Part shown: positions 30,301-58,846 of the stretch, piece after piece
How the letters are laid out: every line of letters starts with the position of its first letter
How positions within the stretch are numbered: position 1 is the first letter of the stretch
Sequence record: NC_015933.1
From: Escherichia phage vB_EcoP_G7C
Reading direction: 5' to 3' (one strand)
DNA length: 64,000 nucleotides
Notes under the pieces: model-generated
The model's input: only the letters and a program-made list of their open reading frames with translations
What the model was told of the DNA's origin: nothing
The model's database searches: none
Program-made: the position numbers and the translations under genes

Positions 30301-33300
30301 GGGTTAGTACTATCTGGGTCAGTCATGAATGATTCAACAGTCAGGTTCTTAGTAACGTGTGCATAGTATTCCTGTGCACGAGAAAGAGCAGCCGGACTAA
30401 TAGCAGCTTCAGTAGCGAGTGCAGCAACAATGTTAGTAAAGAGACGCTGCTCCTGCATATTCATAGTGAAGCCATGAGCCTGAACATCACGGGTTACTTT
30501 AGTTGCGTGCTTTTTCGCATCAGAGAACTTACCTTCACGGATTACTTGCTGTACTGGTTCTGAACCAATGTAGTTAGTAATCAGCTTATCAAATGTCTGT
30601 CCTAACTCTTCCAGACGGGTATTGTCACCATATGCTTTGTTATGGAACAAAGTAGTATCTTTGGCTACAGCAGCAGTAGGAGCCTGCCCACGCATAACAA
30701 CTGAAGAGTTAAACAGTAAGCCAGAGAACATATCATCAGCATTAGCAGGTGCTTCTTCACGACCAAATACCAGTCGCTTGATTGCTTCATATACAGACTG
30801 AATCATAACTTTCAGTGCTGTGGTCTTCTTCTGCTTACTAATTAGCTCCTGGTTAGTTAAACCCCATGCCATGTACTCATTTAATGCAGCAGCTTTAGCT
30901 ATTGCTGGTTCAATATAGCCATTAGACAAGTAGCCGTTAATGGTATAGAGGGCATCGGCATATGCTTCACGTACTTCCGGAGATTCATCCTTAACATCCA
31001 GAGCAAGGAACTGGTTCATCAGGTCTTCGATATTCTGGACTGCTTCGTTAGGAGTACCCTCATAGTGAGCCAGTACAGATTCAAAAGTAGAAGCATGTAC
31101 CAATTCATGAACCAGAGTCTCTAAGGAAGGGGTGACTAAGTAGATGGTCTTATCATCAAAGTTAGTCCAGCCGTATGTATTACCTGCTTCGGCAGCTTCA
31201 ATATCTTCTGGTGCTGGACGGGTAATGTTCTTCTCAATAGCGTAAGCATCCAATTGAGCAGGAGTACCGTAAACAACCTTGTAGTCTTTAGCAGCAAGGG
31301 ATTTCTGTACTTCTTTCAATACTGCTTGCTGTTCAGGAGACATTTCTTTAGCCAGCTTAGTGATAGCAGTATTAGACAACAGACGTACACCAGACTTAAG
31401 TACACGACCAACTTGTTCCATTGCTGGCACTTCTTTAACAGGTGCTTCTTTCACTGGTTCTGCTTTAGCAGCACGTACTGCATCACGACGCTTGTTTAAT
31501 TCAGCATCGAACAGTTCGTTCAGCTTAGCTACTTGCTGGTCTACAGTCAGACCTTCCAGAGAAATTTTACCGTTGTTCACATATGGAGCACCTACAGCAG
31601 CCATCTGGTCAACAGTAGTCTGTACTTGGTTCATTACTTTGTGGCGAATATCTACACCCAGAGCAATGTTTCGCAAGTTACGCTCAATGAGGTTAACACC
31701 GGAATTCTTAATCATATCAATCTTATACTGCCTGTCCCCTTCAACACGACTGATATGAGAAAGCTGTTCAAAATCTAAAGCGGAACGGGCAATGTCATCA
31801 ATTGTCTTATCCGACAACTTATCAAAGTCTACGTTCTTCATGAACTTAGAGAAGGAGTCATACACGTTCTTAATAGGGTTGCCCTGCCAAGAAGTATATA
31901 CAGCCTCGTTAGCTTTACGACTTGCATCAGTGATGTCACTGATACCAATGTTCATACCATCAAAGATTTTCAGGGTATTCTTAGGAGCACCTTTCATAGT
32001 AGAAAGGGTCTGCATCATCATGCCATCACCAGTACCAATGGTCATAAACGGAATACCTGCAACACCTGCTTGTGAAGGAGCATAGATGCTCATTGGCACA
32101 CGCATACGGTCATCTAAGTTGGTAGCCAGTACTTGGTTAGCAACGTCAGTACTCTCACTGCCAGCAAGGTAGAAAGTCTGTGAGCCAGTCTCAATCATTG
32201 GGGCCAGTGGAGATAATGATTCCTGGATTTCATTCAGTTCTTTCTGTGTTAAGAAATCACCCTTCTTCCAGGTTGGGTCTTTTTCTTTTTCTGCTAGCTT
32301 AGTCTGTACTGCTTGTTGGAACATATCCTGCAATACCAGAGACTGAATCTGAGTAGCCTTCTGCAAGTTCTCAGTAGAGTACATCAGACCTTCACCAACA
32401 GTATTACGGATACCGGTACGCATTGGTTCAACGAACAAATGGAGCATGTTCTCTTGTAAGTTCTTCAGAGCATTACCGGATACGGTAAATTTCTGAGGGT
32501 TTAACTTACCAGTCAGAGCACCATCTACTTCCTTAATAAATAACTTACCTTTGCGCTTAGCTGGAATTTTACCAGTCAGTGCTTCCATAGAAGTAAGGAA
32601 AGTATCCAGCATAGCCTGAGCATCAGCCTCAGACGCAGCCTCCTTACCAAACATTGCCATAGCCGGGGAAATGCTAGGGTCAGCAGCACGTGCTTGCAGA
32701 ACGTCGCTGAAGCGTTCGTAGATGGTGTCAGTAATTGCACCGACTATATTACCAGCAATACCACGTGCACCAGCACCATAGATGGTAATGGTAAGCGGGT
32801 TTTTAGCGATACCACGTTTCAGGTCCAGAGTACCATCTTCATTCAGGTTAAAGTCTTTAATGAACAGGTCCATTAACTTCTGGAGATGATTTATCTGGTT
32901 TATAACTGGAACGTTGTTACGGTAAGTAGTACGTAACGCATTCAGTGCTTGTTGCAGACCATTGGTAGATGCTTCATACAAGTCAACATTATCGTCGATA
33001 GAACAATGTTCGTTCATCGTTTTACCAGCACGACCGAAGAACAAACCACCTTTGGCAGTATTCTTAATCCAGTCTGGGGTGAACTTACCACCAGTCATTA
33101 ATACCATTGCGTTGATTGGGCCGTTGGTTACACCATCAGCTTCAACGTACAGAGGGGTAGTAAAATTAGCACGGTCATCACTGTTCAGGTAACGGGCATA
33201 TTCCATCAGGGCCATGAGAGCTACGAAGGATTTGTTATCACCCAGAGAGGTTTTCAGAATATCTACTGCATCAGTAGGTAAATAACCAGACTTATCAAAC

Positions 33301-36300
33301 TCAACCATCATATCAACAGCAGGTTTCAAATTACCTTCCAGAGCTTTGGTCAGATTTTCAGACATAGCTTCACGGGACATTTTATGTACCTTGATGCCCA
33401 ATGCCTGAGCCAGACCTAACTGGAAGTCAGAGAATGCTTGGCTGTTTTCATTACTCAAGTCGATAGTGGAGAAGGTTGGCAGAATTGCTTCACGAACCAG
33501 TTTACTGGATTGTGGGTTATTCTTACCAAGCATCTGCATACGACCTACACGGGTCATGTTGTAACCGTAGTGAATGGGGGTATCCAAACCATTCTCTTGT
33601 TCTTTTAGCTGATTAATTAAACCGAACAAAGAATCATATGCCATAGATACCGATAAGTTCTTACCTTCCAGAGATTTGGCAGTGTTTTCATTCAGCAAAT
33701 CAGGATTAAGAGAACCAGCACCCATCAGTTCCAGAATGCCGTCTCGGCCTAATGCTTCATAGAAGTTAACCATCGGCATGTGTACACGGAACTCCGTAGC
33801 CTGTTCAGCTTTCAAAGCAGCTTTCTGTTCCGGGGTATTCCTAACAGCAGGGTTACGTAACTGAGTTTGAGCCACGGAAGGAATGTCATCACCGAAGTAC
33901 GTTTTCTCTTCCGGATTTACCAGCACAGCTTCCTCAATTGCTGTAGGGAAATTATTAATAGGGTCTTTATCTGCCAACTTATTAATAGTGTACAGACCAA
34001 TAGTCTTATTAGAGTCCGGGTCAATCTCAGACACATCCAGCATAGTCTCAGTAACTGCACCCATCTCGATGAGGGAAGACAGAATCTCTGTAGCCATTGC
34101 CGCTGGAATACCCTTGGTATAACCCAGTGGTGCATTAGGGTTACGGTTTAAACCCCAGTAGGATTCAATCTTTTGAGCCAGTGAGTTAGTAGCCTCAACC
34201 AGAGTCTGGGCATTCTCAAACTCAGTCAGAATACTTTCTGGTAACAGAGATGCATCTACACCAGTAATAGCAGCCACGTCTTTCATGTCTTTAATGGCAG
34301 CATTCTGTGTAGCAGTCAGTCGCCATTGCAGACCGGCAAGTACAGCAGTCTCTAACAACTGATCATTGAACTTAAAGGTATCTCCATCTTTCTCTACGAT
34401 GTTAAGTAACTTACCACTTACCCAACGGTTAGCTTCAGTACCTTCTGCAAAACGTTTACCAACGTTCTTATTAGCAAGGAACTTAGCCAGTCGTTTAGAC
34501 AGAGTAGCCTTCAGAGTTTCCCCAAAGTCCATCAAGTCTTGATAGCGTTCTAACACATCACCTGCGAGAACGTTATTTTCTTTTTGAGTGAATGCTTCAA
34601 AGCGAGCAGCAGAAGACAGTGCTTTCTTGATATCAGCCAAAGGAGATTCAGAACCAATGGTACGGGACTTAGGTTCTTCCGGTAGGGTAAATGCCTTCAG
34701 GAACTGGTTCGGTGTCTTCTCATTGTTATAGACAGGGAACACTGCTTCCATTCCAGAAAGAGGTTTGCCACCCACTGTATAGTCTGCTTTCAGCTGAGCC
34801 AGTGATACCTCATCTTCCTCCACGTTGTTAGTGTTAAGACCAGAGGTATCTACACCAACCAGAATATGTGCATTATTGGCTTCAACGAAAGATTGAACAG
34901 TATTGAATTGTTCAGCAGTCAGTTTCTGATCATCGAACAGCTGTAAGGACACAAACGGTTGTTCGCTGCCTTTATAGAACATAGAGCGAATAGCACCTGT
35001 ATCCAGAGACATATCACGATAACCATCATGACCAAATACATCGGACAGGCTGATATGGTCGCCATTAGAGCCAACCACAGTACCATCAGCAAACAGCCAT
35101 GGACTCTCTCTACGATCACCATACTTATTAAGAGTTTCCTGTGAAATAGTATTTTCTTTCACATAAGCATCTCTTTCAGATTCGGTAGGTTGCTCGATGG
35201 TATCCTCATTAGTAAGGGTAGCATCATCTACAACCGGGCTAGCCTTTTCAGACTTAGGTACTTTCTCTTCCTGTACAGGTGTAACTTCTGGCTGGGAGAA
35301 TGTATTACGTACATAGTTCATAAAATCATTACGTGCTTGGGAAGGGGAAGACCATACTTCCCGTGTGCTACGTAAACTAAAGATTCGACCTTCAGGAGTC
35401 ATTACGTAAGGTACATTTGTTTTACCGTACTTAAATGAAGTGAGTACATCTGACTTACCAGTAACAGTGCTTTCCCCTGGAATGACAATAGTCTTACCAC
35501 CAGTAGAAGGAACAGCACGAACACCCTCAATATCCTTACCAAGAGAAATATACTCTTTACCGTTGTAATCAAAGTACTGACCTATCTGCATATAGGTAGC
35601 TTGTTGCTTACCAGTAAACTCAGCAGTTTTCATCTCCGGGCCGTTAGGTACAGACGTACTTTCAGACTTAGGCTTAGATACTTTCTCTGGTTCTGACTTA
35701 GACTCTACAGTGTTAGGGGCAGTCTCTTTTGCTTCGACTGGTGCAGTTTTTGACTGTACAGTAATGGCTGGTTCCTGTGTTTTTACAGGTGTTTCATCAA
35801 CCTGATTCACTGGTTCATTAGTCTGTTGGGACTGAGTGGCATTAAGACCACCTTGACGGAACTCTTTAACTACCTGGGCAGCTGGCTTGTTCAGACGTGA
35901 ATCCAACGAGGTAACTTTCACATGAGAAACATTAAGCTCCGGGTAAGCCGTAGCAAGTGCATTAGCAATATCAGCTACGGTTTTGGCCTCCAGTGCTACT
36001 TGCTGGGCAAACTTAACAGACTTGGTATCATAAGGATTAACACCGAGGCCAGTACGACTACGTACCCATTCACGGGTAGGCGTGAGAGCCTGATAATGAA
36101 CAGACTTATTCTTATCCGCATTCCCCGAAATCAGATGCTCATTCAACGCTCCGACCTTATTCTGCATGTGCTGGGCGAACTTCATAAAATCGCTCAGATA
36201 AGCGGAAGCCAAATCGAAGTTACCAGAGTTATACGCAGAACGAATGCGTTTCGCATGTTGCAACGCAGAGTACTGTCCTTCATTAGAACGAGACTCGTCG

Positions 36301-38552
36301 GTTTTAATCTGTTTACTAACAATGTCTTGAGGACGTAAGCCCAGTTCTTCTGCTTTAGCATCATACTCACGTGCACCCTGTAACAGAGCAGCAGCTGATT
36401 GCAGGGCAGCACGTTGACGATTATTCAGTGTAATCTTACCTTCACTTGCGTGCTTCAGAACCATGTTCACTGAATCTGCATCCAGTACTTCTGGAGACAC
36501 ATCAGCAGCCATAGCAATGTTGTTTGCTTGGGCTTGATTAGCTTCTTCAGTAGCTTTCAGTTTACCTGCTTCAGCTTGTTCCTGAATCATGGAATGGATG
36601 GCACGGAATGCACGAAGTACTTTAGGGGTATTCTGTATGTTAGCCATCAGGCCGGAGAACTGGTCTACGATTGCAGCAGCAGGAGAACCTTGTTCCAGAT
36701 TAGCCAGAGCACCTGGGTCACGGTTAATGAAGCTATCCATAGACATGATGTTGTCATACATCTGGATTGCAGCTTCCATTTGAACGTCAGGGTCTTCAGC
36801 AGTATTAACCAAGTCAGCCATCTTCTGAATAGCTTCCACACGGTTAGTGGAACCAGAAACAGCTTCACGGATTACTGGGTTGGCTTGTTCCAATTCTACT
36901 GGGTCAAACTTCATTGCCTGAGTCAAGTCAGCAGCATACTGGGTAGCAGCAGCTTTCTCTTCTGGAGTGATATCCATTGCATCTACTGCTTCCTGTACGG
37001 TTGCCTGTGCTTGTTCTGCCTGAGCAACAGCTTCCTGTGCAGCAGCATTAACCGTAGCATCGGCTACAGGGGATGCTTGTTCATTACGCTTAGCAACTTC
37101 TTCCCCACGTTGAACCAGGATGTTAGTAAGAGGAGATGCAGCTTTTGCTAATGTTTTACCAACCAGAGAAGCACCAGCCAGAGTGGTACGAAGAGCAGGT
37201 CCAGCAGCAGCACCGGCAGCTTTAACAGTTGCACCAGGAGCCTGAGCAACACCAGCACTACCGAAGCCATAGAGTGCACCAAGACCCGCTTGCTCACCGA
37301 CACCTTTGAGGGTATCTCGGGATGCATCAACATTTTCCTTGATTGCACGGTTCTGTGCGAACTGACCAAAGCCTGATTGAGTACCCTCTTCAAAAGTCTG
37401 AGCACCAAGGTTAGTAAGAGCTGCCCCAGCAGAACCAACCCTCATGGGGTTAAGTTCAAACTTAGATACTAACGGACCCATAGCAGCAGCAACTGGGGCA
37501 GTTAAGGCAGCAGCAATGATACCCGTTTCAGATGCAGTCTGACGACGTGCTTCATCAGGAGATAAACCATCAGCAATATGTTGTTGGTAAACAGGAGACT
37601 TACTTGCCAGTTCTGGATGGGACATCTTCATGATTTCAGAAGCAGTCTGTTGGTATGCACCCCCGGCTTCCATGCCACCGATTGCAATAGCAGGTGCAGC
37701 AACACGACCAGTAGACAATGCAACCTGTGCAGGACGTGAACCCAACCCAGCAGCTAAGGTAATACCCTTAACAGCTTTATCACCACCTACCATTACTTTA
37801 CCGAGTGCAGATACACCACGAATAAGTGGACCACCAGTAAAGAGGGAACCGACACCCTCACTCAGTCCATCTGAGGCAGCCATACCATTATCAAGTGTGT
37901 TAGCAACAGAGTCGAAAGCATCACGACCAATACGAGACAGGGAGGCAACCAAATCACTCTCCCCGTTTTTGATGTCCTGTTCATAGAGTTTCTGGTTCTT
38001 TTGAGCAGAAATCTGGTTCTGATTCTGAACAACTTTACGGGTAGCATTCAGTGCATCAGACTGTAGATTGTGTACGCCTTCATTCAGCCAATCCATCCCG
38101 GAAGCAATGGTTGCCCCGGCATTATCATTGACCAGACCTGCGCCAAGAGCAGCAATGCCCCCAAGGGTATTAGCAACACCAAGACCAACACCAGAAAGAG
38201 TATCGCCAAATGCTTCTGCGTTAGTACGCTGTTTAGATAAGTCCTGACGTACAGCATCCGCAGCATTAGCTCGGCTATTAAGAATCTGTAAACCTTGCTC
38301 ATTACCGTACTTATTAATGATTTCTAATGGGGAGGCTTGAGTGAAGTCTGCCTGAAGTGAACCTGGTTCGAATGCACCGATTCCAAGATTACCTACTCGT
38401 CCAGTCTGGAGAGTGTAAGCATTCTCTGGGGTTAATTGGAAAGGGCTTTGCCCTTGTGCAGCTTGCTTCTGAGAGGTTGCAGTAGAGACATCGACTTGCT
38501 TAGCATTAGTGATGCTGTCTGCGAAACCTGCCAGACGGTCAAATGTTGACAT
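27306..38552 (-). CDS. Virion-encapsidated RNA polymerase (N4 vRNAP-like giant protein, about 3748 aa)
   Basis: Single 11.2-kb ORF; T7-like RNAP motifs in the central region: motif A YVEADGVTNGP, motif B KRGIAKNPLTITIYGAG, motif C KIFDGMNIG; ATG at 38552 has AGGAAA RBS (ORF-track TTG at 38570). Confidence 0.9.
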   Translation of the reverse strand: MSTFDRLAGFADSITNAKQVDVSTATSQKQAAQGQSPFQLTPENAYTLQTGRVGNLGIGAFEPGSLQADFTQASPLEIINKYGNEQGLQILNSRANAADAVRQDLSKQRTNAEAFGDTLSGVGLGVANTLGGIAALGAGLVNDNAGATIASGMDWLNEGVHNLQSDALNATRKVVQNQNQISAQKNQKLYEQDIKNGESDLVASLSRIGRDAFDSVANTLDNGMAASDGLSEGVGSLFTGGPLIRGVSALGKVMVGGDKAVKGITLAAGLGSRPAQVALSTGRVAAPAIAIGGMEAGGAYQQTASEIMKMSHPELASKSPVYQQHIADGLSPDEARRQTASETGIIAAALTAPVAAAMGPLVSKFELNPMRVGSAGAALTNLGAQTFEEGTQSGFGQFAQNRAIKENVDASRDTLKGVGEQAGLGALYGFGSAGVAQAPGATVKAAGAAAGPALRTTLAGASLVGKTLAKAASPLTNILVQRGEEVAKRNEQASPVADATVNAAAQEAVAQAEQAQATVQEAVDAMDITPEEKAAATQYAADLTQAMKFDPVELEQANPVIREAVSGSTNRVEAIQKMADLVNTAEDPDVQMEAAIQMYDNIMSMDSFINRDPGALANLEQGSPAAAIVDQFSGLMANIQNTPKVLRAFRAIHSMIQEQAEAGKLKATEEANQAQANNIAMAADVSPEVLDADSVNMVLKHASEGKITLNNRQRAALQSAAALLQGAREYDAKAEELGLRPQDIVSKQIKTDESRSNEGQYSALQHAKRIRSAYNSGNFDLASAYLSDFMKFAQHMQNKVGALNEHLISGNADKNKSVHYQALTPTREWVRSRTGLGVNPYDTKSVKFAQQVALEAKTVADIANALATAYPELNVSHVKVTSLDSRLNKPAAQVVKEFRQGGLNATQSQQTNEPVNQVDETPVKTQEPAITVQSKTAPVEAKETAPNTVESKSEPEKVSKPKSESTSVPNGPEMKTAEFTGKQQATYMQIGQYFDYNGKEYISLGKDIEGVRAVPSTGGKTIVIPGESTVTGKSDVLTSFKYGKTNVPYVMTPEGRIFSLRSTREVWSSPSQARNDFMNYVRNTFSQPEVTPVQEEKVPKSEKASPVVDDATLTNEDTIEQPTESERDAYVKENTISQETLNKYGDRRESPWLFADGTVVGSNGDHISLSDVFGHDGYRDMSLDTGAIRSMFYKGSEQPFVSLQLFDDQKLTAEQFNTVQSFVEANNAHILVGVDTSGLNTNNVEEDEVSLAQLKADYTVGGKPLSGMEAVFPVYNNEKTPNQFLKAFTLPEEPKSRTIGSESPLADIKKALSSAARFEAFTQKENNVLAGDVLERYQDLMDFGETLKATLSKRLAKFLANKNVGKRFAEGTEANRWVSGKLLNIVEKDGDTFKFNDQLLETAVLAGLQWRLTATQNAAIKDMKDVAAITGVDASLLPESILTEFENAQTLVEATNSLAQKIESYWGLNRNPNAPLGYTKGIPAAMATEILSSLIEMGAVTETMLDVSEIDPDSNKTIGLYTINKLADKDPINNFPTAIEEAVLVNPEEKTYFGDDIPSVAQTQLRNPAVRNTPEQKAALKAEQATEFRVHMPMVNFYEALGRDGILELMGAGSLNPDLLNENTAKSLEGKNLSVSMAYDSLFGLINQLKEQENGLDTPIHYGYNMTRVGRMQMLGKNNPQSSKLVREAILPTFSTIDLSNENSQAFSDFQLGLAQALGIKVHKMSREAMSENLTKALEGNLKPAVDMMVEFDKSGYLPTDAVDILKTSLGDNKSFVALMALMEYARYLNSDDRANFTTPLYVEADGVTNGPINAMVLMTGGKFTPDWIKNTAKGGLFFGRAGKTMNEHCSIDDNVDLYEASTNGLQQALNALRTTYRNNVPVINQINHLQKLMDLFIKDFNLNEDGTLDLKRGIAKNPLTITIYGAGARGIAGNIVGAITDTIYERFSDVLQARAADPSISPAMAMFGKEAASEADAQAMLDTFLTSMEALTGKIPAKRKGKLFIKEVDGALTGKLNPQKFTVSGNALKNLQENMLHLFVEPMRTGIRNTVGEGLMYSTENLQKATQIQSLVLQDMFQQAVQTKLAEKEKDPTWKKGDFLTQKELNEIQESLSPLAPMIETGSQTFYLAGSESTDVANQVLATNLDDRMRVPMSIYAPSQAGVAGIPFMTIGTGDGMMMQTLSTMKGAPKNTLKIFDGMNIGISDITDASRKANEAVYTSWQGNPIKNVYDSFSKFMKNVDFDKLSDKTIDDIARSALDFEQLSHISRVEGDRQYKIDMIKNSGVNLIERNLRNIALGVDIRHKVMNQVQTTVDQMAAVGAPYVNNGKISLEGLTVDQQVAKLNELFDAELNKRRDAVRAAKAEPVKEAPVKEVPAMEQVGRVLKSGVRLLSNTAITKLAKEMSPEQQAVLKEVQKSLAAKDYKVVYGTPAQLDAYAIEKNITRPAPEDIEAAEAGNTYGWTNFDDKTIYLVTPSLETLVHELVHASTFESVLAHYEGTPNEAVQNIEDLMNQFLALDVKDESPEVREAYADALYTINGYLSNGYIEPAIAKAAALNEYMAWGLTNQELISKQKKTTALKVMIQSVYEAIKRLVFGREEAPANADDMFSGLLFNSSVVMRGQAPTAAVAKDTTLFHNKAYGDNTRLEELGQTFDKLITNYIGSEPVQQVIREGKFSDAKKHATKVTRDVQAHGFTMNMQEQRLFTNIVAALATEAAISPAALSRAQEYYAHVTKNLTVESFMTDPDSTNPADRYYAQQKFDTIMGANNIEFDAQGRSSILPTFVGLAMVSEEVRNVLANIPVMKADKKSGNTVDAMLTNIGTAAMASLNARVAGDTKATNVQEGMDALAQTIMQTSLNAQSFYDSVATPSGNAIDRANQYLVDSIDVLSTRVLESAREVAANTKNPLVKGAAHAAQLMAAIATEKNGANVAEGVMVAMNQGKVWQPFHDLVNDLTGRTKSNASVYDLIKAVRAQVQADRQQFREHLPTTIASKFSRKLTKDEWKAMYTGMGKTDLAVLRDTMSLAEIRDLLSDQKIVDREVNKLEADLQKQAGRNWPLINRKSKQLAQYMINGTVGKNLLRNATAISRMLGERKTTRSIVDVAQLDKLITLYALEAMNKSDREMLSSLAQTEVEGMDFATSYLVGQRKDEMAKAKSDMRATLNQYKGYIPSETKQGVSLVVAEDSEFGDLIEKSYVRLGTYQGSSANRGLARSYYFAPVQAQAPFSQGILQNVRNTAGGVDLGTGFTMGSMVAGRITDKPSVDRIAKALARGERGNEPLLPVYNAKGDVVAYEQSINPNMLKHIEGENHLARAIGVWRGRQVEEAKAQRFNDMLIENLYSMYKEDIKMSAANKSQYVNLFGSKLDPVTADALKLMNSETRRKAEKLFGEGELWVRRDMLNDALGYRAASIGDAWSGNSRWSPETLNTFKKAILGLAGNRAYKYLMGGENLVQNLVKDAKTLIVVKSVVVPVVNFLANLYQMVARGVPVKNIAKSIPRKTAEINQYLKSRLRQVDAEAELRAATNPNQIRKLKAEIQSITDSHKRMSIWPLIEAGEFSSIADAGIGRDDILITEGKLHEYMEKLADKLPKSVRAAGRYALITKDTALFQGIQKTVEYSDFIAKAIIYDELTQRKGKTREEALGRVTEEFINYDRLPGRFRGYMESVGLMWFYNFKIRSAKVAVSMIRNNPVHAAMAMLAPTPTMFGNVGLPIQDNIFSIAAKGSLDYSWGFGQGLRAHNLNPWMNLVN

Positions 38553-38625: not shown

Positions 38626-38650
38626 CCCGTAGGGCTTTTATTAGTATTAC
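38626..38650. terminator. Bidirectional terminator-like hairpin upstream of the vRNAP gene
   Basis: Stem AGCCC/GGGCT flanked by A-run and T-run. Confidence 0.5.
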
Positions 38651-40611
38651 CGATTTTGTCTGGGTTGCATATACTCAGGCAGTCCTTGTGCCTGACGTAA
38701 GTACCGTGCAGCACGTTCTTCATCTTCCTTGGCTCGTGCCCTGTCCACACTAGCCTGTGACCGAAAACCTCTTGGAGCCAGGTTAGCTGGGTCAGCCTGT
38801 ACTTGTGCCTGTGCAGCTTGGAGCATTGCAGCAGCTTTAGTAACAGCCTCCTGTCGTGCAGGTAACAGTGCAGTAAGACCAGTTTGCCCGGTGTTAATCT
38901 TATTCTGGGTATTTGCCAGTGCAGCTACAGCAGCATCATACGCAGTCTGTGCTGCCTGAATATTCTGCATAGCTTGAGCACGACCTAGGTTACGAACACT
39001 ACCTTCCAGTGGTTCTCCACGTTTCACACCCTCAATTAACTGTTCTACCTGACGGTCATTAAGACGCATACCATTACCGGCTTCATTGGTAATGAATGGG
39101 TTAACTGCATCAATAGCACGGCTAATATAACCTTCCGGTACACCGGTCTGTGCACGTTGCATAACAGCAGCAGCCATAGCAGGTGACATATTCCCACGTT
39201 GGGAAATATCGTTCAGTCGGTTCAGTACCCAGTTACGGTCAGCACCTTTAAAATCACCTTCCAACAGACGGTTAGCAATCTCACCTACTGGGGTATTATC
39301 AGTGACAGTACCGAGGAAGTCTGTGTTAAGACTACCGGTGTTATCCTGCATGGAACGTGTACCAATCATACCCTGAGCCAGAGTAGATACTGCCTGATTA
39401 CCTTGATTATTCTGAACCATAGCTAGTGGGTCAGCCCCTACTTCAGCTTGGGCAATAACAGGTTTAATCTCTTCCCATGTCATATCCTTATAAGCACCTG
39501 GGGTAGAGTTAGGCAGAGCAGCCCAAGTATCTTTAAGGTTACCGTTCTTACGAGCCTCGAAGATAGCCTTACCAATCTTATCCTGGTTCTCAGGAGAAAG
39601 GGGCTGGCTTTGCCAATCTGAACCAAGAACTTTAGGAGCGAAGTCTTTCAGGGTAGCTTGGTTAATCTGGAATGCTCCAACAGGTGAAGCACCCTGATTC
39701 GACTTCATACCATCCTGGTGTTTAATTACATCACCAATACTCATTTGAGTAATAGGAGTAGATGTACCAGCAAACTGGTAGGTAACATCGTAAGGGGAAC
39801 CCTGACGTGTACCAGCAGTACCCGGAGCAGACGTAGCACCAACATTGTTACCGTAAACACCCGGGTATGCTCGTGCAAGCATTTCCTGCAAACGTGCCTG
39901 GGCAACCGGAGACAGGTTCTTACTATATGCTTCTGCCAATAGACGGGCATCATTAGGGTTCTCAGCACCACGGGTAATCTGTGACATTACACCCATAGCT
40001 GCCTGACTATCGGCATCATTACGCTGAGCAACACCTAAATCAAAACGGTTCTGTGCCTGATTAATAGCCTGACCACTTTGGCCTTGAAGACGGCTCAGCA
40101 TGTCCAATTGCTGGTCAGCAGGGAGTGCAGACAATGCATCACGGGTCTGACTTAATGCAGCATTAATACGGTTCTGGTCACCTGACTGGTATGCCTCAGA
40201 CAGTAAACGGATAGCAGGGGAAGCATTATCTAATGCAGTGTTAGTATCCTGTAAACGACCAAAGCGATACGCATTGTAGTCATTGGTTCCCTGCTGACCT
40301 TGTTGAGTCAACAGTGTACCTGCTCTCTCATCCAGGTTTTGAAGGGTACGCTGGTTTATCAATGAACGGTCAACCCCCTGAAATAATGCACCAGATGCCA
40401 AAGCATTACGGTACTCAGTAGGGTCTTGGTACTGCATAGCATTCATCATGACGGCATTGCCAGCCTCCTGCTTGGCAGCGTTCTGGAAATTACCCAGTGC
40501 ATCACTTAAGCCGGAGGTGGCGTTACCAATCATGCTGCCAAATGTGCGAATGCTGTCACCAACTCCAGAAAAGTTAGGTGCATCAACATTACGCCATGTA
40601 ATTTGAGCCAT
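38647..40611 (-). CDS. Virion internal/structural protein, Q/N/A-rich
   Basis: 654-aa ORF with TAGGAAACC RBS; Gln/Asn/Ala-rich composition; directly upstream of vRNAP in the late operon. Confidence 0.7.
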   Translation of the reverse strand: MAQITWRNVDAPNFSGVGDSIRTFGSMIGNATSGLSDALGNFQNAAKQEAGNAVMMNAMQYQDPTEYRNALASGALFQGVDRSLINQRTLQNLDERAGTLLTQQGQQGTNDYNAYRFGRLQDTNTALDNASPAIRLLSEAYQSGDQNRINAALSQTRDALSALPADQQLDMLSRLQGQSGQAINQAQNRFDLGVAQRNDADSQAAMGVMSQITRGAENPNDARLLAEAYSKNLSPVAQARLQEMLARAYPGVYGNNVGATSAPGTAGTRQGSPYDVTYQFAGTSTPITQMSIGDVIKHQDGMKSNQGASPVGAFQINQATLKDFAPKVLGSDWQSQPLSPENQDKIGKAIFEARKNGNLKDTWAALPNSTPGAYKDMTWEEIKPVIAQAEVGADPLAMVQNNQGNQAVSTLAQGMIGTRSMQDNTGSLNTDFLGTVTDNTPVGEIANRLLEGDFKGADRNWVLNRLNDISQRGNMSPAMAAAVMQRAQTGVPEGYISRAIDAVNPFITNEAGNGMRLNDRQVEQLIEGVKRGEPLEGSVRNLGRAQAMQNIQAAQTAYDAAVAALANTQNKINTGQTGLTALLPARQEAVTKAAAMLQAAQAQVQADPANLAPRGFRSQASVDRARAKEDEERAARYLRQAQGLPEYMQPRQNR

Positions 40612-40623
40612 GATGGTTTCCTA

Positions 40624-41085
40624 TTAACGAGTAAGTTTATTAGCTGCAATGTAAGCATCAGCTGAAGACTGGTCACGGTTCTCTGCTGTAGCACGGCTAC
40701 GAGCACGGTCTTCCAGTGCAGTGTTATAAGACTTAATCTGATTATTCAGGTTAGTGTTAGTAACGCTCTTAGCAAAGTTCAACTGGTTTTTGGCTAACTT
40801 GTTAGCCTGGAAACCACCATAGATATTGGCTAAGGAACCAAGTGCATCAAGTCCTAGTTGGAAGGTAGGAATATTCATGCCTAATTGGTCAGTCAAGCCT
40901 GAATCATTACCTGAGCCAAACAAAGAACTATCCAAACTACCATTTAAAAAATCCATGCCAACTGTTTGTCCGGGCCGATAATTCATTGCCGGAGTACTAA
41001 AGTTTTGCTTCTGGTTGTTACCAGATAACCAGGACAAAGCCCCTGGCTGAAGGGTTTGGTTGCCTGTAAAGAATGACAAATCCAT
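40624..41085 (-). CDS. Virion protein (hypothetical)
   Basis: ATG at 41085 with AGGAGA RBS (ORF-track TTG at 41106). Confidence 0.6.
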   Translation of the reverse strand: MDLSFFTGNQTLQPGALSWLSGNNQKQNFSTPAMNYRPGQTVGMDFLNGSLDSSLFGSGNDSGLTDQLGMNIPTFQLGLDALGSLANIYGGFQANKLAKNQLNFAKSVTNTNLNNQIKSYNTALEDRARSRATAENRDQSSADAYIAANKLTR

Positions 41086-41098
41086 GGGGATTCTCCTG

Positions 41099-43750
41099 TT
41101 AAACAAGGTCAGTATTAAGAGTCATATCAGAGTAGCTGCCAATCATGTTTAAGGACATGTCAGCTATATCCGAACCAGTCATAAGAGTACGTGAGAGGAA
41201 AGAATCCAACGACTCCAATGACACAAATTGCATAGGGTCAATTACACCCTGCCCAGCAGTACCAAACATTTCTTCATACTGCTTATTGATTGCCATCATA
41301 TCAGTATTGTACTGCTGCATTACATTCTCTGCTTTCTGAATAGTAGCAGCCGTAGATGCATTAATATACTGGCTAATACCATTACCTACTGAACTGGTAA
41401 GCTGCATAATGTTCTGAGCATTCATCATTTCACCGGCTAAGGTAGATAAGGATGTACCAGTAGACATAGCAGTACCAACGTTCATAGCCACCATTGAAGC
41501 AATAGCAGCAATGATAAAACCTAGCTTATCACCAAACAGAGAAGTGGATACTTTAGTGACAATAGATATCATAATCATTGCAGCAATGGCGTTTGCTACA
41601 GCACCTACTATTACAGCAGCTAATCCAACAAAACCTAGCGATGCACCAACTGCACCATAAGCCCCAAGAATACCTGCACCACCAGCACTACCAGCACCCA
41701 TAGTAAATACGGATATAACGACAGCAACTACAACAACCACAATCTTAAAGGCAGAGGACTGATACCACTTTTTCTTAACCTTTTTATATGAGTTCATTAC
41801 TAAGTAAGAGCAGGCAGTAGATAACTGAGTGCTACGAACTAGTGACATTGAACGATAGATGTTGGTGTGCAGGGGAATAATGAATCCACTCTCTTCTGCA
41901 TCACCCATTGCTTCAGCAACATCAATATTTACTGACTTATTTTTATATACCTTGTTGCTATGATGAAGGCCCAATACCCTAAGTTTACGGTAGGTATTAT
42001 TACCATCCTGCCAAAGCAACTCATATTCTTGCATAGTATAAAACGTAGGGGTAACTTCCAGCTTTTTGCTAGCACCAGCACGCATGTTCTTACGGGTAAG
42101 GGTTATATCCCCTGCATATCTGGCTCGAAGTTGTCCTTGTTTAGCACCAGCCCATGCTTCACCGGAATGGGTAGTTTCAAATACGTAGTTCCAACTAATA
42201 GTCATATCATACTTATAATGCTTACTACTATGCACCCTAAACTCCCGCTTAGGTATAACAGGGTATTCTGGCAGCGGTGGAGGTGTTCCAACAATTTGGC
42301 CTTCATGCCTGTCCCACCATTCCTCATATGCATCTACTGCATCGTTTGCTGCCTGATAACCTGCAATCACTGCTTCCAGTGTAGGGTAGGTTGGATCAGG
42401 TGGAAATGCTTCAGTAGCCATCTGAAAGAAACGGTAGATGTATTCCTTAGCAGTATCTTCTGGAGTATTAAGAGATACACCGAATGTGCCATAGATGTAT
42501 TGAATATCGCCTATGTCATCATTCTTCTTAAGCTCAGTCACTACTTTATCTAGCTTACCACCAGTAGCTTTATAGAGTGCCTTCTTACAGTGGGGGTAGA
42601 TTGTGTCATTCTCTACCCATTGCTTATCATTCCTGATTGGAATAAATGGATAGAATCGGTTATCAGTAGCCTCAGTTTCAAACAGTGAATCGAGTGTAGC
42701 GTTACCTGAGTTCTTCTTATAGATAAGCATCTTAGGTGTACCAACAGCAGTCATCTCAGTGTCAGTACGAGTAGTCTGGGATGAGTACTTACGAACCAGT
42801 GTCTCTGTGGTCGTGGTGATTGTATCGGTGCGAGTAACACCACCACCTAAATTAACTACATTAGTGGTTACAGTAGTACTGGATTGAACCTCACCAAACT
42901 TTCTATGAGTCATTACCCTGTCAGATACAACTACAGTTACATCATCAGGTTTCTCAGTGAACCCTCTACGGTAAACCTTAACGTAAGAGTTCCAGTTATC
43001 CACACTTGGTACAGTAACAGTACTGTCTTCATATGGTCTACCATCAGAGTAAACAGAATGAGTCTGTATAGTCTTAGTAAGATTGGTTGTGTTAGCCGTC
43101 GTATTACTTGAGATGGTAGTCCATAACAGAGTAGACGGTAAGTCATTTTCGCTGTTATAGACAGTAGTCGGACCTACTACCGGTGGATTGGTAGCCGGGG
43201 ACTTATAGAACGTGTAATCAGCATAGAGATACAAAGCACCTGGTTCAAAGTTAGTAGGTGTGAATGTAATGGGGGAACCTCCATCTAAGGAGGTCATAGT
43301 GATTACATTAGTATCTTCATCAATGTCTATGTCGAATCGTTCCATGATTCGACTTGGGGCATTCTCATAAAGATACTGATCACACCATTGCTCAAAGTCA
43401 GCAAAGCCAATCTCTGCTGCCTGAACATAGACAGATTCTCCAGCAGGTGGAGTAATTTGACCCTCTATAACAGTAGGGTCAATCTTAGCCAGTACACCTA
43501 ATGAAGCCCCTGCCATACCAACTTCTGAATCATAGTGGTTCTTGCTCCAGCTAGAGAACAGTCGCATACGTATACCAGGCCCCTTCAGATAACTATCAGA
43601 GATAGTGTCTGCCATAGTGAATCCTGTATCAGCAACAATCTTACCGATGACTACAGTCTTCATATAGTTTGGACGTTTGTGTATATCCCCTGCCATGTTA
43701 TAGACAGAGGATGCTACGTATACTTTGGTCTTACTACTGAATAAGCCCAT
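41099..43750 (-). CDS. Large virion protein with long Gly/Ala-rich multi-helix hydrophobic region (candidate ejection/channel protein)
   Basis: 883 aa; roughly 150-aa stretch of consecutive hydrophobic G/A/V/I-rich segments (IVVVVVAVVISVF…AAVIVGAVANAIAAMIMISIV…FIIAAIASMVAMNVG). Confidence 0.75.
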   Translation of the reverse strand: MGLFSSKTKVYVASSVYNMAGDIHKRPNYMKTVVIGKIVADTGFTMADTISDSYLKGPGIRMRLFSSWSKNHYDSEVGMAGASLGVLAKIDPTVIEGQITPPAGESVYVQAAEIGFADFEQWCDQYLYENAPSRIMERFDIDIDEDTNVITMTSLDGGSPITFTPTNFEPGALYLYADYTFYKSPATNPPVVGPTTVYNSENDLPSTLLWTTISSNTTANTTNLTKTIQTHSVYSDGRPYEDSTVTVPSVDNWNSYVKVYRRGFTEKPDDVTVVVSDRVMTHRKFGEVQSSTTVTTNVVNLGGGVTRTDTITTTTETLVRKYSSQTTRTDTEMTAVGTPKMLIYKKNSGNATLDSLFETEATDNRFYPFIPIRNDKQWVENDTIYPHCKKALYKATGGKLDKVVTELKKNDDIGDIQYIYGTFGVSLNTPEDTAKEYIYRFFQMATEAFPPDPTYPTLEAVIAGYQAANDAVDAYEEWWDRHEGQIVGTPPPLPEYPVIPKREFRVHSSKHYKYDMTISWNYVFETTHSGEAWAGAKQGQLRARYAGDITLTRKNMRAGASKKLEVTPTFYTMQEYELLWQDGNNTYRKLRVLGLHHSNKVYKNKSVNIDVAEAMGDAEESGFIIPLHTNIYRSMSLVRSTQLSTACSYLVMNSYKKVKKKWYQSSAFKIVVVVVAVVISVFTMGAGSAGGAGILGAYGAVGASLGFVGLAAVIVGAVANAIAAMIMISIVTKVSTSLFGDKLGFIIAAIASMVAMNVGTAMSTGTSLSTLAGEMMNAQNIMQLTSSVGNGISQYINASTAATIQKAENVMQQYNTDMMAINKQYEEMFGTAGQGVIDPMQFVSLESLDSFLSRTLMTGSDIADMSLNMIGSYSDMTLNTDLV

Positions 43751-43751
43751 A

Positions 43752-44588
43752 TTAATTCAGCCCGTTGTTAATCTTCAGCTTGGACAAAATGGTATCAAGA
43801 CTTGCGTTAGTGAAACCATTAGGCGGGTTCAAGCCTTCATCAATAGTCTTCTGTGTAATCCATGCATCAGTAAACAACTTAGATGCTTTAACTTCTGCAT
43901 CACGTTGGTAAGAAGTAATCTGTTGAGAGTACAACTCTTTCTGCTTACCTACGGAACCCCTAACTGCTGCACCGTCTGTACGAGTATCCAACGTCTGTGC
44001 ACGTTGTGCCTCAGTCTGCTCAGTAATCAGTTTAAGCTGTTGAGGTAACATCTGGTTAGCATTAAACAATGCAGCACAGTATGTTTCAGACTCAGTAGCA
44101 ATCTTCATCTTAGTGAGGGCATATTCACTCTTAGCAGACAGTGCCTGAATCTTAGCCAGCACATACTGAGCTTTAGAAGTAGCCAATGTAACACGAGCAG
44201 TGACTGCCTGAATCTGTGCCATAGCAGCAGCCCAGTATGCTTGGTCACGACCAAGTAAGAACTGAACAGCATTACTCATGCACGATTCCATCATGGCAAT
44301 ATAGGCTTTGGTGTATTCACCACCTGTAATACGGTTAGCTTTAAACTCAGCTTTAAGGTGATTGTGAGCAGATTCCATTAATGCATCAAACGTACCACTG
44401 CCCCCCACTTCACGGGTAGTAAGTGATTCATTTGTTACTTTGCTAATAGCATCAAAGATTGGAGAACTATCCCCACCAGGGATATCCCATTCGGGACCAG
44501 ACATATCAATATCAGGGAGGGTAAAGTCATCACCCTTAGTTAACTCTTCAAGGAGTCGGTTAGCTTCTACCTCAGCAGAACAAGACAT
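43752..44588 (-). CDS. Virion structural protein (hypothetical)
   Basis: ORF in late operon; ATG at 44588 is 6 nt after AGAGGA. Confidence 0.65.
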
Positions 44589-44664
44589 AATCATTCCTCT
44601 TGGTTCAAAAAGAAACGGCCCACGGAGTTACCCCAGTGAGCCGTGTTGAACTGTAGCTTATACG

Positions 44665-52344: not shown

Positions 52345-54900
52345 TTAGCCCACATTACCAATAGTCATGCTGTACTCAAGAGTAAATAACTGACTAGAAG
52401 CAGACGGGTTATATAATCCTACATAACCAGAGGTAGCTACAGTAGTAGAGAATGCAGACGTAGTTGCCGTGCCATCATCTGACTCTACAGTAAAGGTATG
52501 AGCACCAGTAGAGGAGGAAGTATATTCCCATACTTTAAAGCCTTTATCTTCACGAGTAGTATCACCAAATACTACCCAGTCAGTTGGGTTAGCATTGTTG
52601 AACGTACCGATGCACATATTACCTGCAGCATTCACACCGACTAACACACCAACATTAGTAAGTGGGTTATAGTTAAGTGCAATATAGGTGTTTTTCTTAA
52701 GACCTCTCGGTACAGCCAGATAACCTACAGATGCACCATTATAAAGGTGAGAGTCTGCGGTTTTACTGAACTGAGTACCAGACAAAACTTCACCAAATAC
52801 ACCATAGTCATTGGCGTTAGACTGCTTCATTACTGGAGCAGGACGGGTCATGTTAGGTTCTTTGCTAAGACGAACCATCGGCAGCTTAACCCCATCCGTT
52901 TTGTAAGAACCAAACTTCAGCATAGGGAAGTAAGCATCAGTAGGACTACCATCAATGATATAACGGATAAAGTTCAAACCTTTACGTAATCGCCCCATAT
53001 AGGTAGTAAGGGTTTTGCCACCCCCAAAGTAACTCATGGCAGTCTTGCCATTAAGCACGGTGCGGTAGGCATTAATTTGAGTATTACGTTCTTGGTATTC
53101 ACCGGACTCAAACAATGCTTTGCCCACAGGAGACTCAACACGGATGTTGTGGGATTGCCCAACAACGGCAGCATTAGTCCATGGTTCTAGAAGGGATACA
53201 GTCATACCTTCTTCTTCACACCATACCATTGTGGTCATGGTTACATTTTCATTAGTTACACACTTAGACAGAAAACGGAATACGTTCAGAGCAGGAGCAC
53301 CAGATACAGGTACATACTGTGGTGCATAGTGAGTACCGGAAGGATACCCTACACAATCCCAATAGTTTTCTACAGCAGCCTGAGTGAGCATATCCCCCGG
53401 TCTAACACGACGACAGTACTTATTACCAAGGGTCTGCATATACATCGCATTACCCATAGCCATTTGTCCAAGTTCTTGTGGGTGAGTAGTATCCCAGGTT
53501 CCATCCTTCTTAACATAGTAGTAGTACCCAGTTTGCTCATTGCGGCTACTTGCACTAGTCAGATTTGGTCCCAAGTTAAAATACTCAACACCTAGTTTAT
53601 CTGCCATGTACTTCTTAGTACTAAGCTCAAATGCCATACGTACTGAGTCATTATCGTTGACTGTTACAATACCAACGGCACAACCGTAGCCCCATGCTTT
53701 ACGAACAAACTTGTCAATCTGGTCACGGTAGGTAGCGATACTAGCACTACTGTCATTCCAACCCATTGCAAGGATACATACACGAGGAGCTTCTGCACCA
53801 TAGCGTGTGTTACCGAAGAACCCACGGTCGAAGTTACGATAACCCCAACCGTCGGATAACTTCTTACCAGATACGGAACAGTTAGCTGATTGGTAAATAG
53901 TTTCACCACTACGACGAGACTGTGTGAGCAACAAGCCATTCATCCAGTGTTCAGTCCATGAGTGGGAACCCCCAGATAAAGAATGATTGTATGTACTTGG
54001 GGCATCTAAGTCACCATCTGAGTTAGTTGGCGGAGAACTCCAATCCTGTTTACCCCATGCACCATCAGTAATGGAATCGCCAATGATACCGATACGACAA
54101 AATGTCTGGTCACGGAATGCACAGTATATTTCGTCATTAACGGTTTTATTGTTACCATTCATTGAAGCAGCAATGTCAAACGTATGGTCCTTTGCATACC
54201 ACTGGTTTTTAACAATAAGTTTGCCTTCCCCAACAAACTTACGGACATCATCATCGGGTAGTAAGTTACAACGAATGGTAACACCATTAGGGATAAAGAT
54301 TTTACCGGGGAAAGCATAAGCAGCTGCACGGTTATCCGTAGTAGTATTAACAACAATACCAGGAACATCATATACGGAAGTAGAACCAACAGGAGGAATT
54401 AGACCATTGTTTAATTCTTGTCGTATTAATTCATCATTAGCAATAACCCATGCAGTGGGAGAAATACCACCTGCACTAACCGGGGTAGAGTTAAGTGGTA
54501 CGCTCTTGGGTAACCCACCAGCCCAGCGATACTGCGTGCCATTATGAGTAAGCAATTCATTCTTGGTCTGTATAACTGAGCCAGAAGTAAACGTATCCGG
54601 TAAAGTTACATATTCTTTGCGAGTAACAGCTAATGCACCTAAGTCCACGCTACCAGCAGAGTGAACTAATACACCAGCAGGACTAAGGCTTATAGCAGTA
54701 ACACCTGAACCAATGTTAGCAGGTAAGGAATAAGCACGCTGTGTCCCTTTGTCGTAGATGACTTTGTAACCACTTAGTACAGCACCCACTGAGAAGTAAA
54801 CAACCTCAGATTGTTTAACCCCAAAGTGACGTGCTATTGCTTGTTTATTGGTTAGGATTCCTGTTGAACCCTTACCGCCTTGTGAGAACATTTCGTTCAT
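52345..54900 (-). CDS. Tailspike with SGNH/GDSL esterase domain (candidate surface-polysaccharide deacetylase)
   Basis: GDSL block RIGIIGDSITDGAWG (Ser at nt 54073-54081); N-terminal ~160 aa similar to an internal domain of the upstream 1063-aa tailspike; AAGAGG RBS. Confidence 0.85.
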   Translation of the reverse strand: MNEMFSQGGKGSTGILTNKQAIARHFGVKQSEVVYFSVGAVLSGYKVIYDKGTQRAYSLPANIGSGVTAISLSPAGVLVHSAGSVDLGALAVTRKEYVTLPDTFTSGSVIQTKNELLTHNGTQYRWAGGLPKSVPLNSTPVSAGGISPTAWVIANDELIRQELNNGLIPPVGSTSVYDVPGIVVNTTTDNRAAAYAFPGKIFIPNGVTIRCNLLPDDDVRKFVGEGKLIVKNQWYAKDHTFDIAASMNGNNKTVNDEIYCAFRDQTFCRIGIIGDSITDGAWGKQDWSSPPTNSDGDLDAPSTYNHSLSGGSHSWTEHWMNGLLLTQSRRSGETIYQSANCSVSGKKLSDGWGYRNFDRGFFGNTRYGAEAPRVCILAMGWNDSSASIATYRDQIDKFVRKAWGYGCAVGIVTVNDNDSVRMAFELSTKKYMADKLGVEYFNLGPNLTSASSRNEQTGYYYYVKKDGTWDTTHPQELGQMAMGNAMYMQTLGNKYCRRVRPGDMLTQAAVENYWDCVGYPSGTHYAPQYVPVSGAPALNVFRFLSKCVTNENVTMTTMVWCEEEGMTVSLLEPWTNAAVVGQSHNIRVESPVGKALFESGEYQERNTQINAYRTVLNGKTAMSYFGGGKTLTTYMGRLRKGLNFIRYIIDGSPTDAYFPMLKFGSYKTDGVKLPMVRLSKEPNMTRPAPVMKQSNANDYGVFGEVLSGTQFSKTADSHLYNGASVGYLAVPRGLKKNTYIALNYNPLTNVGVLVGVNAAGNMCIGTFNNANPTDWVVFGDTTREDKGFKVWEYTSSSTGAHTFTVESDDGTATTSAFSTTVATSGYVGLYNPSASSQLFTLEYSMTIGNVG

Positions 54901-54926
54901 ATAAACCTCTTTGTTTTTCTAAGAAA

Positions 54927-54943
54927 CCCCGCCGAAGCGGGGG
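54927..54943 (-). promoter_or_regulatory. Intergenic hairpin between the two tailspike genes (attenuator or processing site)
   Basis: CCCCGC-CGAA-GCGGGGG, same hairpin as 52301-52316. Confidence 0.5.
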
Positions 54944-54947
54944 TATT

Positions 54948-58139: not shown

Positions 58140-58846
58140 CGCCATCCTCGTTGTTCAAATTTAGTTTCGGTAATTGAAATACTTCCATTAGCCAGGTCGT
58201 AATCAACAACCTCACCACAGATGCTTTCATACGTTTGCAGATACTCTGCTGCTTTAGCGTTAGCTTCAGGTGTATTCAAACCAGTGTGGTAACGATAACC
58301 CACCCAGTTATGAAGTGCCGTCATTAGCGTATCAGCTAAATCAACTTCCTGTTCTTCATCACCCGTAAGAACTGGGTGCTTAGCTTGATACGTTACGTTA
58401 AGTGCCTCGAAGTGTCGAGGTCGCATACACTGAATAGTATCAGGCCGTGGGGTGAAAATAGCATGGGGGTCTGAGTCGTCGTTCAGTCTACGTCGATTCC
58501 CCGAGTTATCAAACACATTTAAGATTTTAATAACATCATCCTGGAAAGGTTTCATGAACCCATCCATGATGTACGGATATTGGACCTCAAGAGTAGGCTT
58601 AGTAAATTTGGAGTAAGCATATTTGGATTGAAGAGGATAATCAGTACGCCCTTCCTTCATCTCCACAATGCAGCTATTTGTCTTAAGAGGGAAACGACTA
58701 TGCAGTCGTACCAGTCCTTCATTAATAGCAGCCAGTATCTCCGGCTTACTATCTGGTTCAATATCTAGTCTGTCATCCGTGACTGCACCAGTACCTTTTA
58801 AGGTACTTAGTGCTAAGCCACGGTATACTTCCGATAATTTCTGCAT
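58136..58846 (-). CDS. Virion structural protein (hypothetical)
   Basis: GAGGAA RBS; stop overlaps tailspike start (ATGA). Confidence 0.65.
   Translation of the reverse strand: MQKLSEVYRGLALSTLKGTGAVTDDRLDIEPDSKPEILAAINEGLVRLHSRFPLKTNSCIVEMKEGRTDYPLQSKYAYSKFTKPTLEVQYPYIMDGFMKPFQDDVIKILNVFDNSGNRRRLNDDSDPHAIFTPRPDTIQCMRPRHFEALNVTYQAKHPVLTGDEEQEVDLADTLMTALHNWVGYRYHTGLNTPEANAKAAEYLQTYESICGEVVDYDLANGSISITETKFEQRGWR

Follow-up and report, generated by a model that had tools for sequence, protein, structure and literature searches.

Introduction

The tail of phage N4 is closed by a 'tail-gating complex', visualized by cryo-electron microscopy (cryo-EM), in which one copy of gp53 seals the tube built from twelve gp54 subunits (Bellis et al., Nat Commun 2026, PMC13434306). 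Here, we analyzed the gene that corresponds to gp53 in a 64,000-nucleotide stretch of phage DNA (sequence record NC_015933.1; hereafter, the window), where an open reading frame (ORF) of 883 amino acids (aa) occupies positions 41099–43750 of the minus strand. A first-pass annotation had described its product as a virion protein encoded in a late operon and, based on a long hydrophobic stretch, as a plausible membrane-inserting ejection protein that would form the conduit for the virion RNA polymerase (vRNAP) and DNA.

In N4, the globular core of gp53 and a 'feather-shaped' β-sheet are located outside the tube, residues 29–56 and 670–716 sit wedged in the lumen as a 'hydrophobic knot' made of six short helices, and the final ~160 residues are disordered within the tube. 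The plug is clamped by domains D9–D10 of gp65, the sheath/receptor-binding protein. Particles that had emptied in vitro still bear gp53, for which lateral displacement and rebinding were proposed. The channel was assigned to multi-copy gp52 and gp51 together with the vRNAP N-terminal domain, with bilayer experiments (PMC13434306; the abstract and the main text of that paper swap gp51 and gp52 as the outer-membrane complex, and the main text was used here).

[quoted passage not shown] Both the plug and its greasy corking stretch are already described for the N4 and DEV orthologues. In the G7C-type Shigella phage Moo19, gp70 was detected in virions by mass spectrometry (MS) (PMC11654681), and the secondary receptor and the trigger of G7C-type phages have been called unclear (PMC10743462). 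Further, an N4 lysis preprint drew attention to gp53 as a late gene product for which transmembrane domains are predicted, and recovered its Q98R variant from a rapid-lysis screen; the lysis phenotype was not reproduced when Q98R was rebuilt. What the present analysis adds is the fixed C-terminal spacing of two to three hydrophobic segments throughout the family, the uniqueness of these segments among the window ORFs of at least 120 aa, and the lack of gp65 in the window.

Results

Identity of the gene at 41099–43750

The gene starts with ATG, and its coordinates and length are exactly those of the first-pass annotation. In a phmmer search against the PDB, residues 1–882 of the product aligned with residues 1–883 of N4 Gp53 (9YFT chain FA; E = 0, 1049 bits). 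In line with this result, N4 gp53 employed as a tblastn query on the window gave 53–54% identity (883 aa in the window, 885 aa in N4). The protein also matched PHROG 2220 (E = 0), a group without assigned function, and, at E = 1e-15, chain M of 9ZE4, the 'N4 gp53-like protein' in the DEV tail-gating complex. No meaningful result came from scanning either the full 883 aa or the C-terminal 228 residues with NCBIfam and with Pfam, the latter also under relaxed settings, and tape-measure families in Pfam and NCBIfam gave no match even at E ≤ 1, neither for the whole protein nor for residues 656–883. Judged by these alignments, the product is a full-length orthologue of phage N4 gp53, and by orthology with N4 it is very probably the single-copy tail plug that seals the tail tube.

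At the DNA level, the gene is 88–92% identical to about 55 records of Escherichia and Shigella phages, and the 24-kb structural region is ~94% identical to that of phages ST4, F22 and PhAPEC7. The source phage is an N4-like podophage of the G7C type (Gamaleyavirus-like), and its plug belongs to the Schitoviridae group; Moo19 gp70 is a homologue of the gene studied here. Nearly all of 57 closely related phage records call the orthologue a 'hypothetical protein', a few being unannotated or otherwise labelled. The labels of other relatives are inconsistent and comprise 'membrane protein', 'baseplate wedge protein' and 'putative 4 transmembrane helical domains containing protein'. The orthologue can now carry the name tail plug.

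The presence of the product in virions, which had been claimed in the first-pass annotation, cannot be read from the sequence and is supported by orthology, namely by the detection of N4 gp53 by liquid chromatography–mass spectrometry and cryo-EM (PMC13434306) and of Moo19 gp70 by MS. Its assignment to a late structural operon agrees with the synteny with the N4 structural genes described below.

Hydrophobic block

The block of hydrophobic residues extends from residue 667 to 763 (97 aa; 41462–41752, minus strand, as for all the parts of the gene given below), of which 64% are G/A/V/I and 80% G/A/V/I/L/M/F, with four charged residues. By comparison, the G/A/V/I share of residues 1–661 is 25%. 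Within the block, 63 consecutive residues (670–732) are free of D/E/K/R, a length reached in only 4 of 20,000 shuffled versions of the protein. The block that had been proposed is thus real, and it is exceptional and far beyond chance. It is nevertheless shorter, at ~100 residues, than the roughly 150 originally given, and it is placed at 76–86% of the chain, in the C-terminal quarter and not in the middle. A length of 150 is reached only if the low-charge, Ser/Thr/Asn-rich tail up to about residue 810 is also counted, with 52% G/A/V/I and seven charges.

Kyte–Doolittle means over 19 residues peak at 2.5, and three non-overlapping 19-mers exceed 1.6: 670–688, 710–728 and, marginally, 743–761. 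On a crude Hessa-type scale, employed without position or length terms, so that it ranks segments and is not a calibrated predictor, these segments sum to −0.2, −0.5 and +1.95, respectively. Elsewhere in the window, no 19-mer of an ORF with 120 aa or more sums to less than +3.8 on this scale, and none is of transmembrane grade, whether in the spanin, in the endolysin or in the orthologues of gp51 and gp52. Directly before the first hydrophobic segment stands a basic cluster, KKVKKK(W)YQ..FK. The block also continues for ~45 residues past the part that is resolved as a knot in N4.

Conservation across the family

The gp53 family comprises 1,747 cluster representatives at E ≤ 1e-3, and 267 phage records were found, from phages of Escherichia, Vibrio, Erwinia, Achromobacter, Klebsiella, Rhizobium and Pseudomonas, from roseophages and from others. 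Two to three transmembrane-grade segments are located ~220, 180 and 145 residues before the C-terminus in 256 of the 257 homologues examined. The distance from the first segment to the C-terminus is a constant 210–227 residues, across subfamilies with different tube and receptor-binding proteins. The hydrophobic segments are kept even at 23–25% identity, in gp33 of Shigella phage B2 (2221–4548) and gp47 of Vibrio phage JA-1 (2272–4380), both of which begin with MGLFS, carry the motif KWYQTGIFK, have three transmembrane-grade segments and are encoded after the tail-tube gene, as in the window. In the structure paper on Moo19 and B2, 'N/A' was entered for the gp53-like protein of B2 (PMC11654681).

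The block is among the best-conserved regions of the protein, with conservation at G693, G696, G702, G706, G709, A712, G716 and N720. The same applies to the KxKWYQ..FK motif that precedes it, where K659, W662 and Y663 are near-invariant. Residues 1–28 (43667–43750), which comprise the near-invariant N-terminus (MGLFSSK...) and the first β-strand, are 67–73% identical even where overall identity falls below 50%, with M1, N18, G21 and R26 being invariant. Although MGLFSSK agrees with the eukaryotic N-myristoylation pattern, a reading as such a signal was rejected, since the homologues in B2 and JA-1 do not keep position 6 of the pattern and bacteria are not known to possess the enzyme.

At the other end of the chain, ESLDSFLSRTLMTG (residues 846–859; 41174–41215), with the motif E846..F851..R854 T855..G859, contributes 5 of the 20 invariant columns of the protein. 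This part is disordered in the N4 map and of low confidence in the structure prediction, and a FFARTL-type C-terminal motif is also kept in B2 gp33. The most variable region is the β-feather, which is missing from many homologues of 730–750 aa.

Both segments that form the knot in N4 are present here and kept family-wide. Residues 29–56 (43583–43666), the N-terminal helical hairpin that makes up one half of the knot in N4, align with N4 without gaps. Residues 670–719 (41594–41743), which correspond to the other half (N4 670–716), align with one 3-residue indel, an insertion in the Gly-rich loop of the knot.

Predicted fold and covariation

An AlphaFold2 (AF2) model was built on an alignment of 85 sequences. 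It is confident for residues 9–660, the core and a four-stranded feather, and helical but of low confidence for residues 684–883, a split that mirrors the resolved and unresolved parts of N4 gp53 in cryo-EM. Helices are predicted at 29–40 and 46–55 in the N-terminal hairpin. The globular core, whose first part (residues 57–204; 43139–43582) is outside the tube in N4, is interrupted by the β-feather insertion (residues 205–335; 42746–43138), with strands at 211–234, 241–266, 272–300 and 306–334 and a predicted local distance difference test score (pLDDT) of 80–93. The second part of the core (residues 336–660; 41771–42745) has a pLDDT of 75–93 and ends at the KKVKKKWYQ basic motif. The core has its fold in common with the solved plug structures, and no significant fold similarity was detected between the β-feather and aerolysin-type β-pore-forming toxins.

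The hydrophobic region is predicted to be helical (DSSP on the AF2 model) and not a β-helix core, which supports this part of the first-pass proposal. Residues 764–883 (41102–41461), equivalent to the part unresolved in the N4 lumen, are predicted as a C-terminal helical tail with a pLDDT of 31–52.

Covariation was estimated by simple mutual information, a weak method, with an effective number of sequences of about 207. The pairs 33–53 and 37–49 support the N-terminal hairpin, and strand 8–18 covaries with strand 648–659, so that both excursions into the tube would begin at one sheet. Weak covariation within the block (698–717, 694–727 and 705–719) fits intramolecular helix packing.

Neighbouring genes

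By tblastn, the N4 gene order is reproduced in the window as vRNAP, gp51, gp52, gp53, gp54 tail tube, gp55 and major capsid protein, and mapping of the N4 proteins showed complete synteny for gp50–gp63 and gp67–gp69. In phages B2 and JA-1, too, the plug homologue is encoded between the tail-tube gene and the cassette of gp52, gp51 and vRNAP. The tail tube gene, orthologous to N4 gp54, a 12-mer ring, is located upstream of the plug gene (43752–44594, minus strand) and matches 9D80_C (Moo19 tail protein; E = 3.6e-147) and 9LC0_K (N4 Gp54; E = 2.5e-123). The ATG of the plug gene is 1 nt past the stop codon of the tube gene, and its own stop is followed by a CAGGAGA Shine–Dalgarno sequence and the ATG of gp52.

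The gp52 orthologue (40624–41085, minus strand), a small ejection protein stored in the tail lumen, is 70% identical to N4 gp52. It most likely starts at ATG 41085 after CAGGAGA (153 aa) rather than at the mechanically assigned TTG 41106. The orthologue of gp51 (38647–40611, minus strand), a tunnel-forming ejection protein, matches the N4 gp51 structure PDB 11MN_A, '66 kDa protein' (E = 1.2e-127), and is 50% identical to its N4 counterpart by tblastn. Residues 506–626 of this protein gave a weak match to the NCBIfam model RipA NlpC/P60 (E = 1.5e-5; 24 bits, where the cutoff is 625). We suspect that the match reflects a coiled-coil part and not the catalytic domain, and it is not evidence of peptidoglycan hydrolase activity. 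Neither orthologue (38647–41085) has a classical hydrophobic segment, the lowest 19-mer sums being +11.4 for gp51 and +9.7 for gp52, which fits amphipathic, oligomer-dependent pores and not single-helix insertion.

The vRNAP, the gp50 orthologue (27306–38552, minus strand; ~3748 aa), is 59% identical to N4 gp50 over residues 1–969 and 68% over residues 1008–3500. Its start is most likely ATG 38552, where MSTFDRL corresponds to residue 1 of N4 gp50, rather than TTG 38570. Gly/Ala-rich hydrophobic runs were noticed at about residues 125–150 (~38100–38200 in the window) and in other N-terminal stretches, e.g., GVGLGVANTLGGIAALGAGLV. Their composition is like that of the gp53 block, and they are less hydrophobic (the lowest 19-mer sum of the whole vRNAP is +4.0). 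In N4, the N-terminal domain of the vRNAP has been proposed to help build the inner-membrane part of the channel (PMC13434306).

With N4 gp64 and gp65 as tblastn queries, nothing in the window matched at E ≤ 1e-3. Between gp63 and gp67 (52345–58145, minus strand), two tailspikes are encoded instead. One of them (52345–54900, 851 aa) matches G7C gp63.1 over its full length (PDB 4QNL; E = 0, 1975 bits), and the N-terminal 474 aa of the other (54948–58145, 1065 aa) resemble the Moo19 tail fibre 9D80_D. From N4 gp66, residues 1–72 alone match, at 57912–58139. The RefSeq label 'tail length tape measure protein' on N4 gp57, whose gene adjoins the major capsid gene, looks doubtful for a short-tailed phage.

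Discussion

For the window gene, the analysis established the orthology with N4 gp53, the synteny, the fold and the fact that its hydrophobic segments are conserved. Taken together with the N4 and DEV structures, these results suggest that the position of the plug, the knot, its copy number and its retention on empty particles would also hold in the source phage. One copy per virion would cap the distal opening of the dodecameric gp54 tube, with residues 57–660, the family-specific globular core and the long β-feather, outside the tube. The chain would enter the tube twice, with the hairpin 29–56 and with the first half of the block (~670–719), and these two parts would pack into a compact hydrophobic knot, made of short helices, that acts as a cork in the lumen. 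Conserved glycines may allow the greasy segments to fold back as short, tightly packed helices, which the tube wall would shield from water. Residues 720–763 and the conserved helical tail 764–883 would extend up the lumen beside the stored gp52. Once the receptor-binding apparatus engages the cell, the plug would be displaced sideways, and the cork and luminal tail would be pulled out like a 'ripcord', to be followed by gp52, gp51, vRNAP and DNA. The protein belongs to the apparatus governing the release of vRNAP and DNA, which retains one part of the first-pass proposal.

Several observations weigh against such a transfer from N4. The available plug structures come from N4 and DEV and none from a G7C-type phage, and cryo-EM of Moo19 gave weak unassigned density at the tube tip and nothing more (PMC11654681). 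As homologues of gp64 and gp65 are missing from the window, the N4 'tail-gating complex' is not transferable as such. The N4 knot was not reproduced by AF2, which, with a pLDDT below 50 from residue 684 and low values throughout the hydrophobic and C-terminal region, offers no independent view of it. Likewise, none of the top covarying pairs links residues 29–56 to 670–719; mutual information is too weak a method for these missing pairs to count against the knot. Finally, transmembrane-grade hydrophobicity that persists for ~45 residues past the knot seems more than a steric cork needs.

This excess of hydrophobicity leads to the question of whether the plug could have a second role, in which the displaced helices and the C-terminal tail enter the outer (or inner) membrane of the host, either anchoring the tail tip or disturbing the bilayer and nucleating the gp52/gp51 channel, a 'pilot' role like that of the hydrophobic loops in the tail knob of phi29 or of the hydrophobic segments in the tape-measure proteins of siphophages. 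In its favour, segments 670–688 and 710–728 have sums near zero and 743–761 one of +1.95, compared to at least +9.7 in the orthologues of the pore-forming gp52 and gp51. The block outlasts the resolved knot, the basic cluster stands before its first segment, and the C-terminal architecture of 210–227 residues is kept despite differing tube and receptor-binding partners. The luminal part would, moreover, have to exit the tube before anything else passes. Conservation, however, does not discriminate between a cork and a membrane role, because a core packed on the tube wall needs equal hydrophobicity, and the membrane entry of gp53 helices is a prediction from hydrophobicity. The N4 plug is docked on emptied particles, and what was proposed for it is a sideways displacement followed by rebinding, with no loss into the membrane; as those particles had emptied in vitro, the retention argument is weak both ways. 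All in all, we regard a dual role as unlikely. A bolder form of the idea, in which the plug would be the first membrane-active component of infection, is likewise doubtful: once dislodged by receptor engagement, helices 670–763 and the C-terminal module would unfold from the knot, insert into the outer membrane and either seed the gp52/gp51 channel or set its orientation, and, in G7C-type phages lacking gp65, the exposed core and β-feather would act as a cell-surface sensor.

The conduit model of the first-pass annotation, in which the protein crosses the membrane several times, leaves the particle and serves by itself as the trans-envelope passage for vRNAP and DNA, would account for the transmembrane-grade helices, for the operon position beside the ejection proteins and for the labels 'putative 4 transmembrane helical domains containing protein' and 'membrane protein' in GenBank records of relatives. 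This proposal did not hold. The N4 orthologue is present in one copy per virion, has a folded domain of 660 residues outside the tube and is retained on empty particles, whereas gp52 and gp51 are credited with channel activity and a decameric tunnel structure, with the vRNAP N-terminus as a further part of the channel. A single chain with two or three helices could hardly line a pore of ~35 Å, nor could the globular core pass through the tube, which makes this role extremely improbable. Hardly any more credit can be given to a host inner-membrane protein acting late in infection, in lysis timing, superinfection exclusion or membrane-bound assembly, with incorporation into virions being secondary. 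The segments are hydrophobic enough for the host insertion machinery, and the N4 preprint had flagged the transmembrane domains of gp53 after the recovery of Q98R; yet the rebuilt mutant had no lysis phenotype, the protein is a stoichiometric structural component in cryo-EM, and the gene lies in the structural operon and not in a lysis cassette. An assembly role is rather improbable too. Here, the luminal C-terminal region would nucleate the tube or load gp52 in a tape-measure- or chaperone-like manner, the block being needed only in morphogenesis. The constant length of the C-terminal module, the position of the invariant motif 846–859 in the lumen, where gp52 is stored, and the adjacent tail-tube stop and gp53 start, which suggest coupled expression, are consistent with it. 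The tube, however, is a fixed gp54 dodecamer and not a stack of variable length, so that no ruler is needed, and no similarity to tape-measure families was found; besides, such a role is compatible with that of a plug.

With the tail plug as the preferred reading, the interest of the gene shifts to the fate of the family's transmembrane-grade helices once they are outside the tube, and to the fact that G7C-type phages keep the plug without the N4 protein that holds and triggers it. These phages serve in O-antigen and phage-therapy work.

Comparison with known systems

The closest relative of known structure, N4 gp53, has the same gene position, hairpin, core, β-feather, hydrophobic block and C-terminal tail as the window protein. 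The two differ most in the β-feather, and the window protein has three additional residues in the Gly-rich knot loop. The N4 holder gp65, with gp64, is missing from the window, where G7C-type tailspikes replace it. DEV gp74 (9ZE4 chain M; PMC12892993) shows the same hydrophobic segments and C-terminal motif in the alignment and the same place after the tail-tube gene, but has 740 aa, lacks the β-feather and is 12–13% identical over structural alignments. The DEV plug is held by the gp56–gp55–gp54 receptor-binding fibre, no counterpart of which was noticed in the window, where no dedicated search for it was made.

In the tail knob of phi29, hydrophobic loops of gp9 reportedly block the lumen and exit first on DNA release; these loops, of which there are said to be six, reportedly belong to the tube protein itself and give rise to a pore in the membrane. 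In contrast, the window plug is a separate protein, single-copy by orthology, and no sequence or fold relation to gp9 was found. The gp26 needle of P22 and Sf6 likewise seals the channel of the tail once packaging is complete and comes off when the receptor is contacted (discussed in PMC11445570). It is, however, a trimeric coiled-coil that is inserted symmetrically and ejected, whereas gp53 is monomeric, asymmetric and mostly β, with a hydrophobic cork, and no fold match between the gp53-type plug and the needle was found.

Lastly, the ejectosome proteins (gp14/gp15/gp16 in T7, gp52/gp51/gp50 in N4 and gp73/gp72/gp71 in DEV) share with the plug the operon and the release sequence, and part of gp53 is stored in the tail lumen alongside gp52. 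Unlike the ejectosome proteins, which are multi-copy, leave the particle and build 9–10-fold channels, gp53 is single-copy, mostly external and retained.

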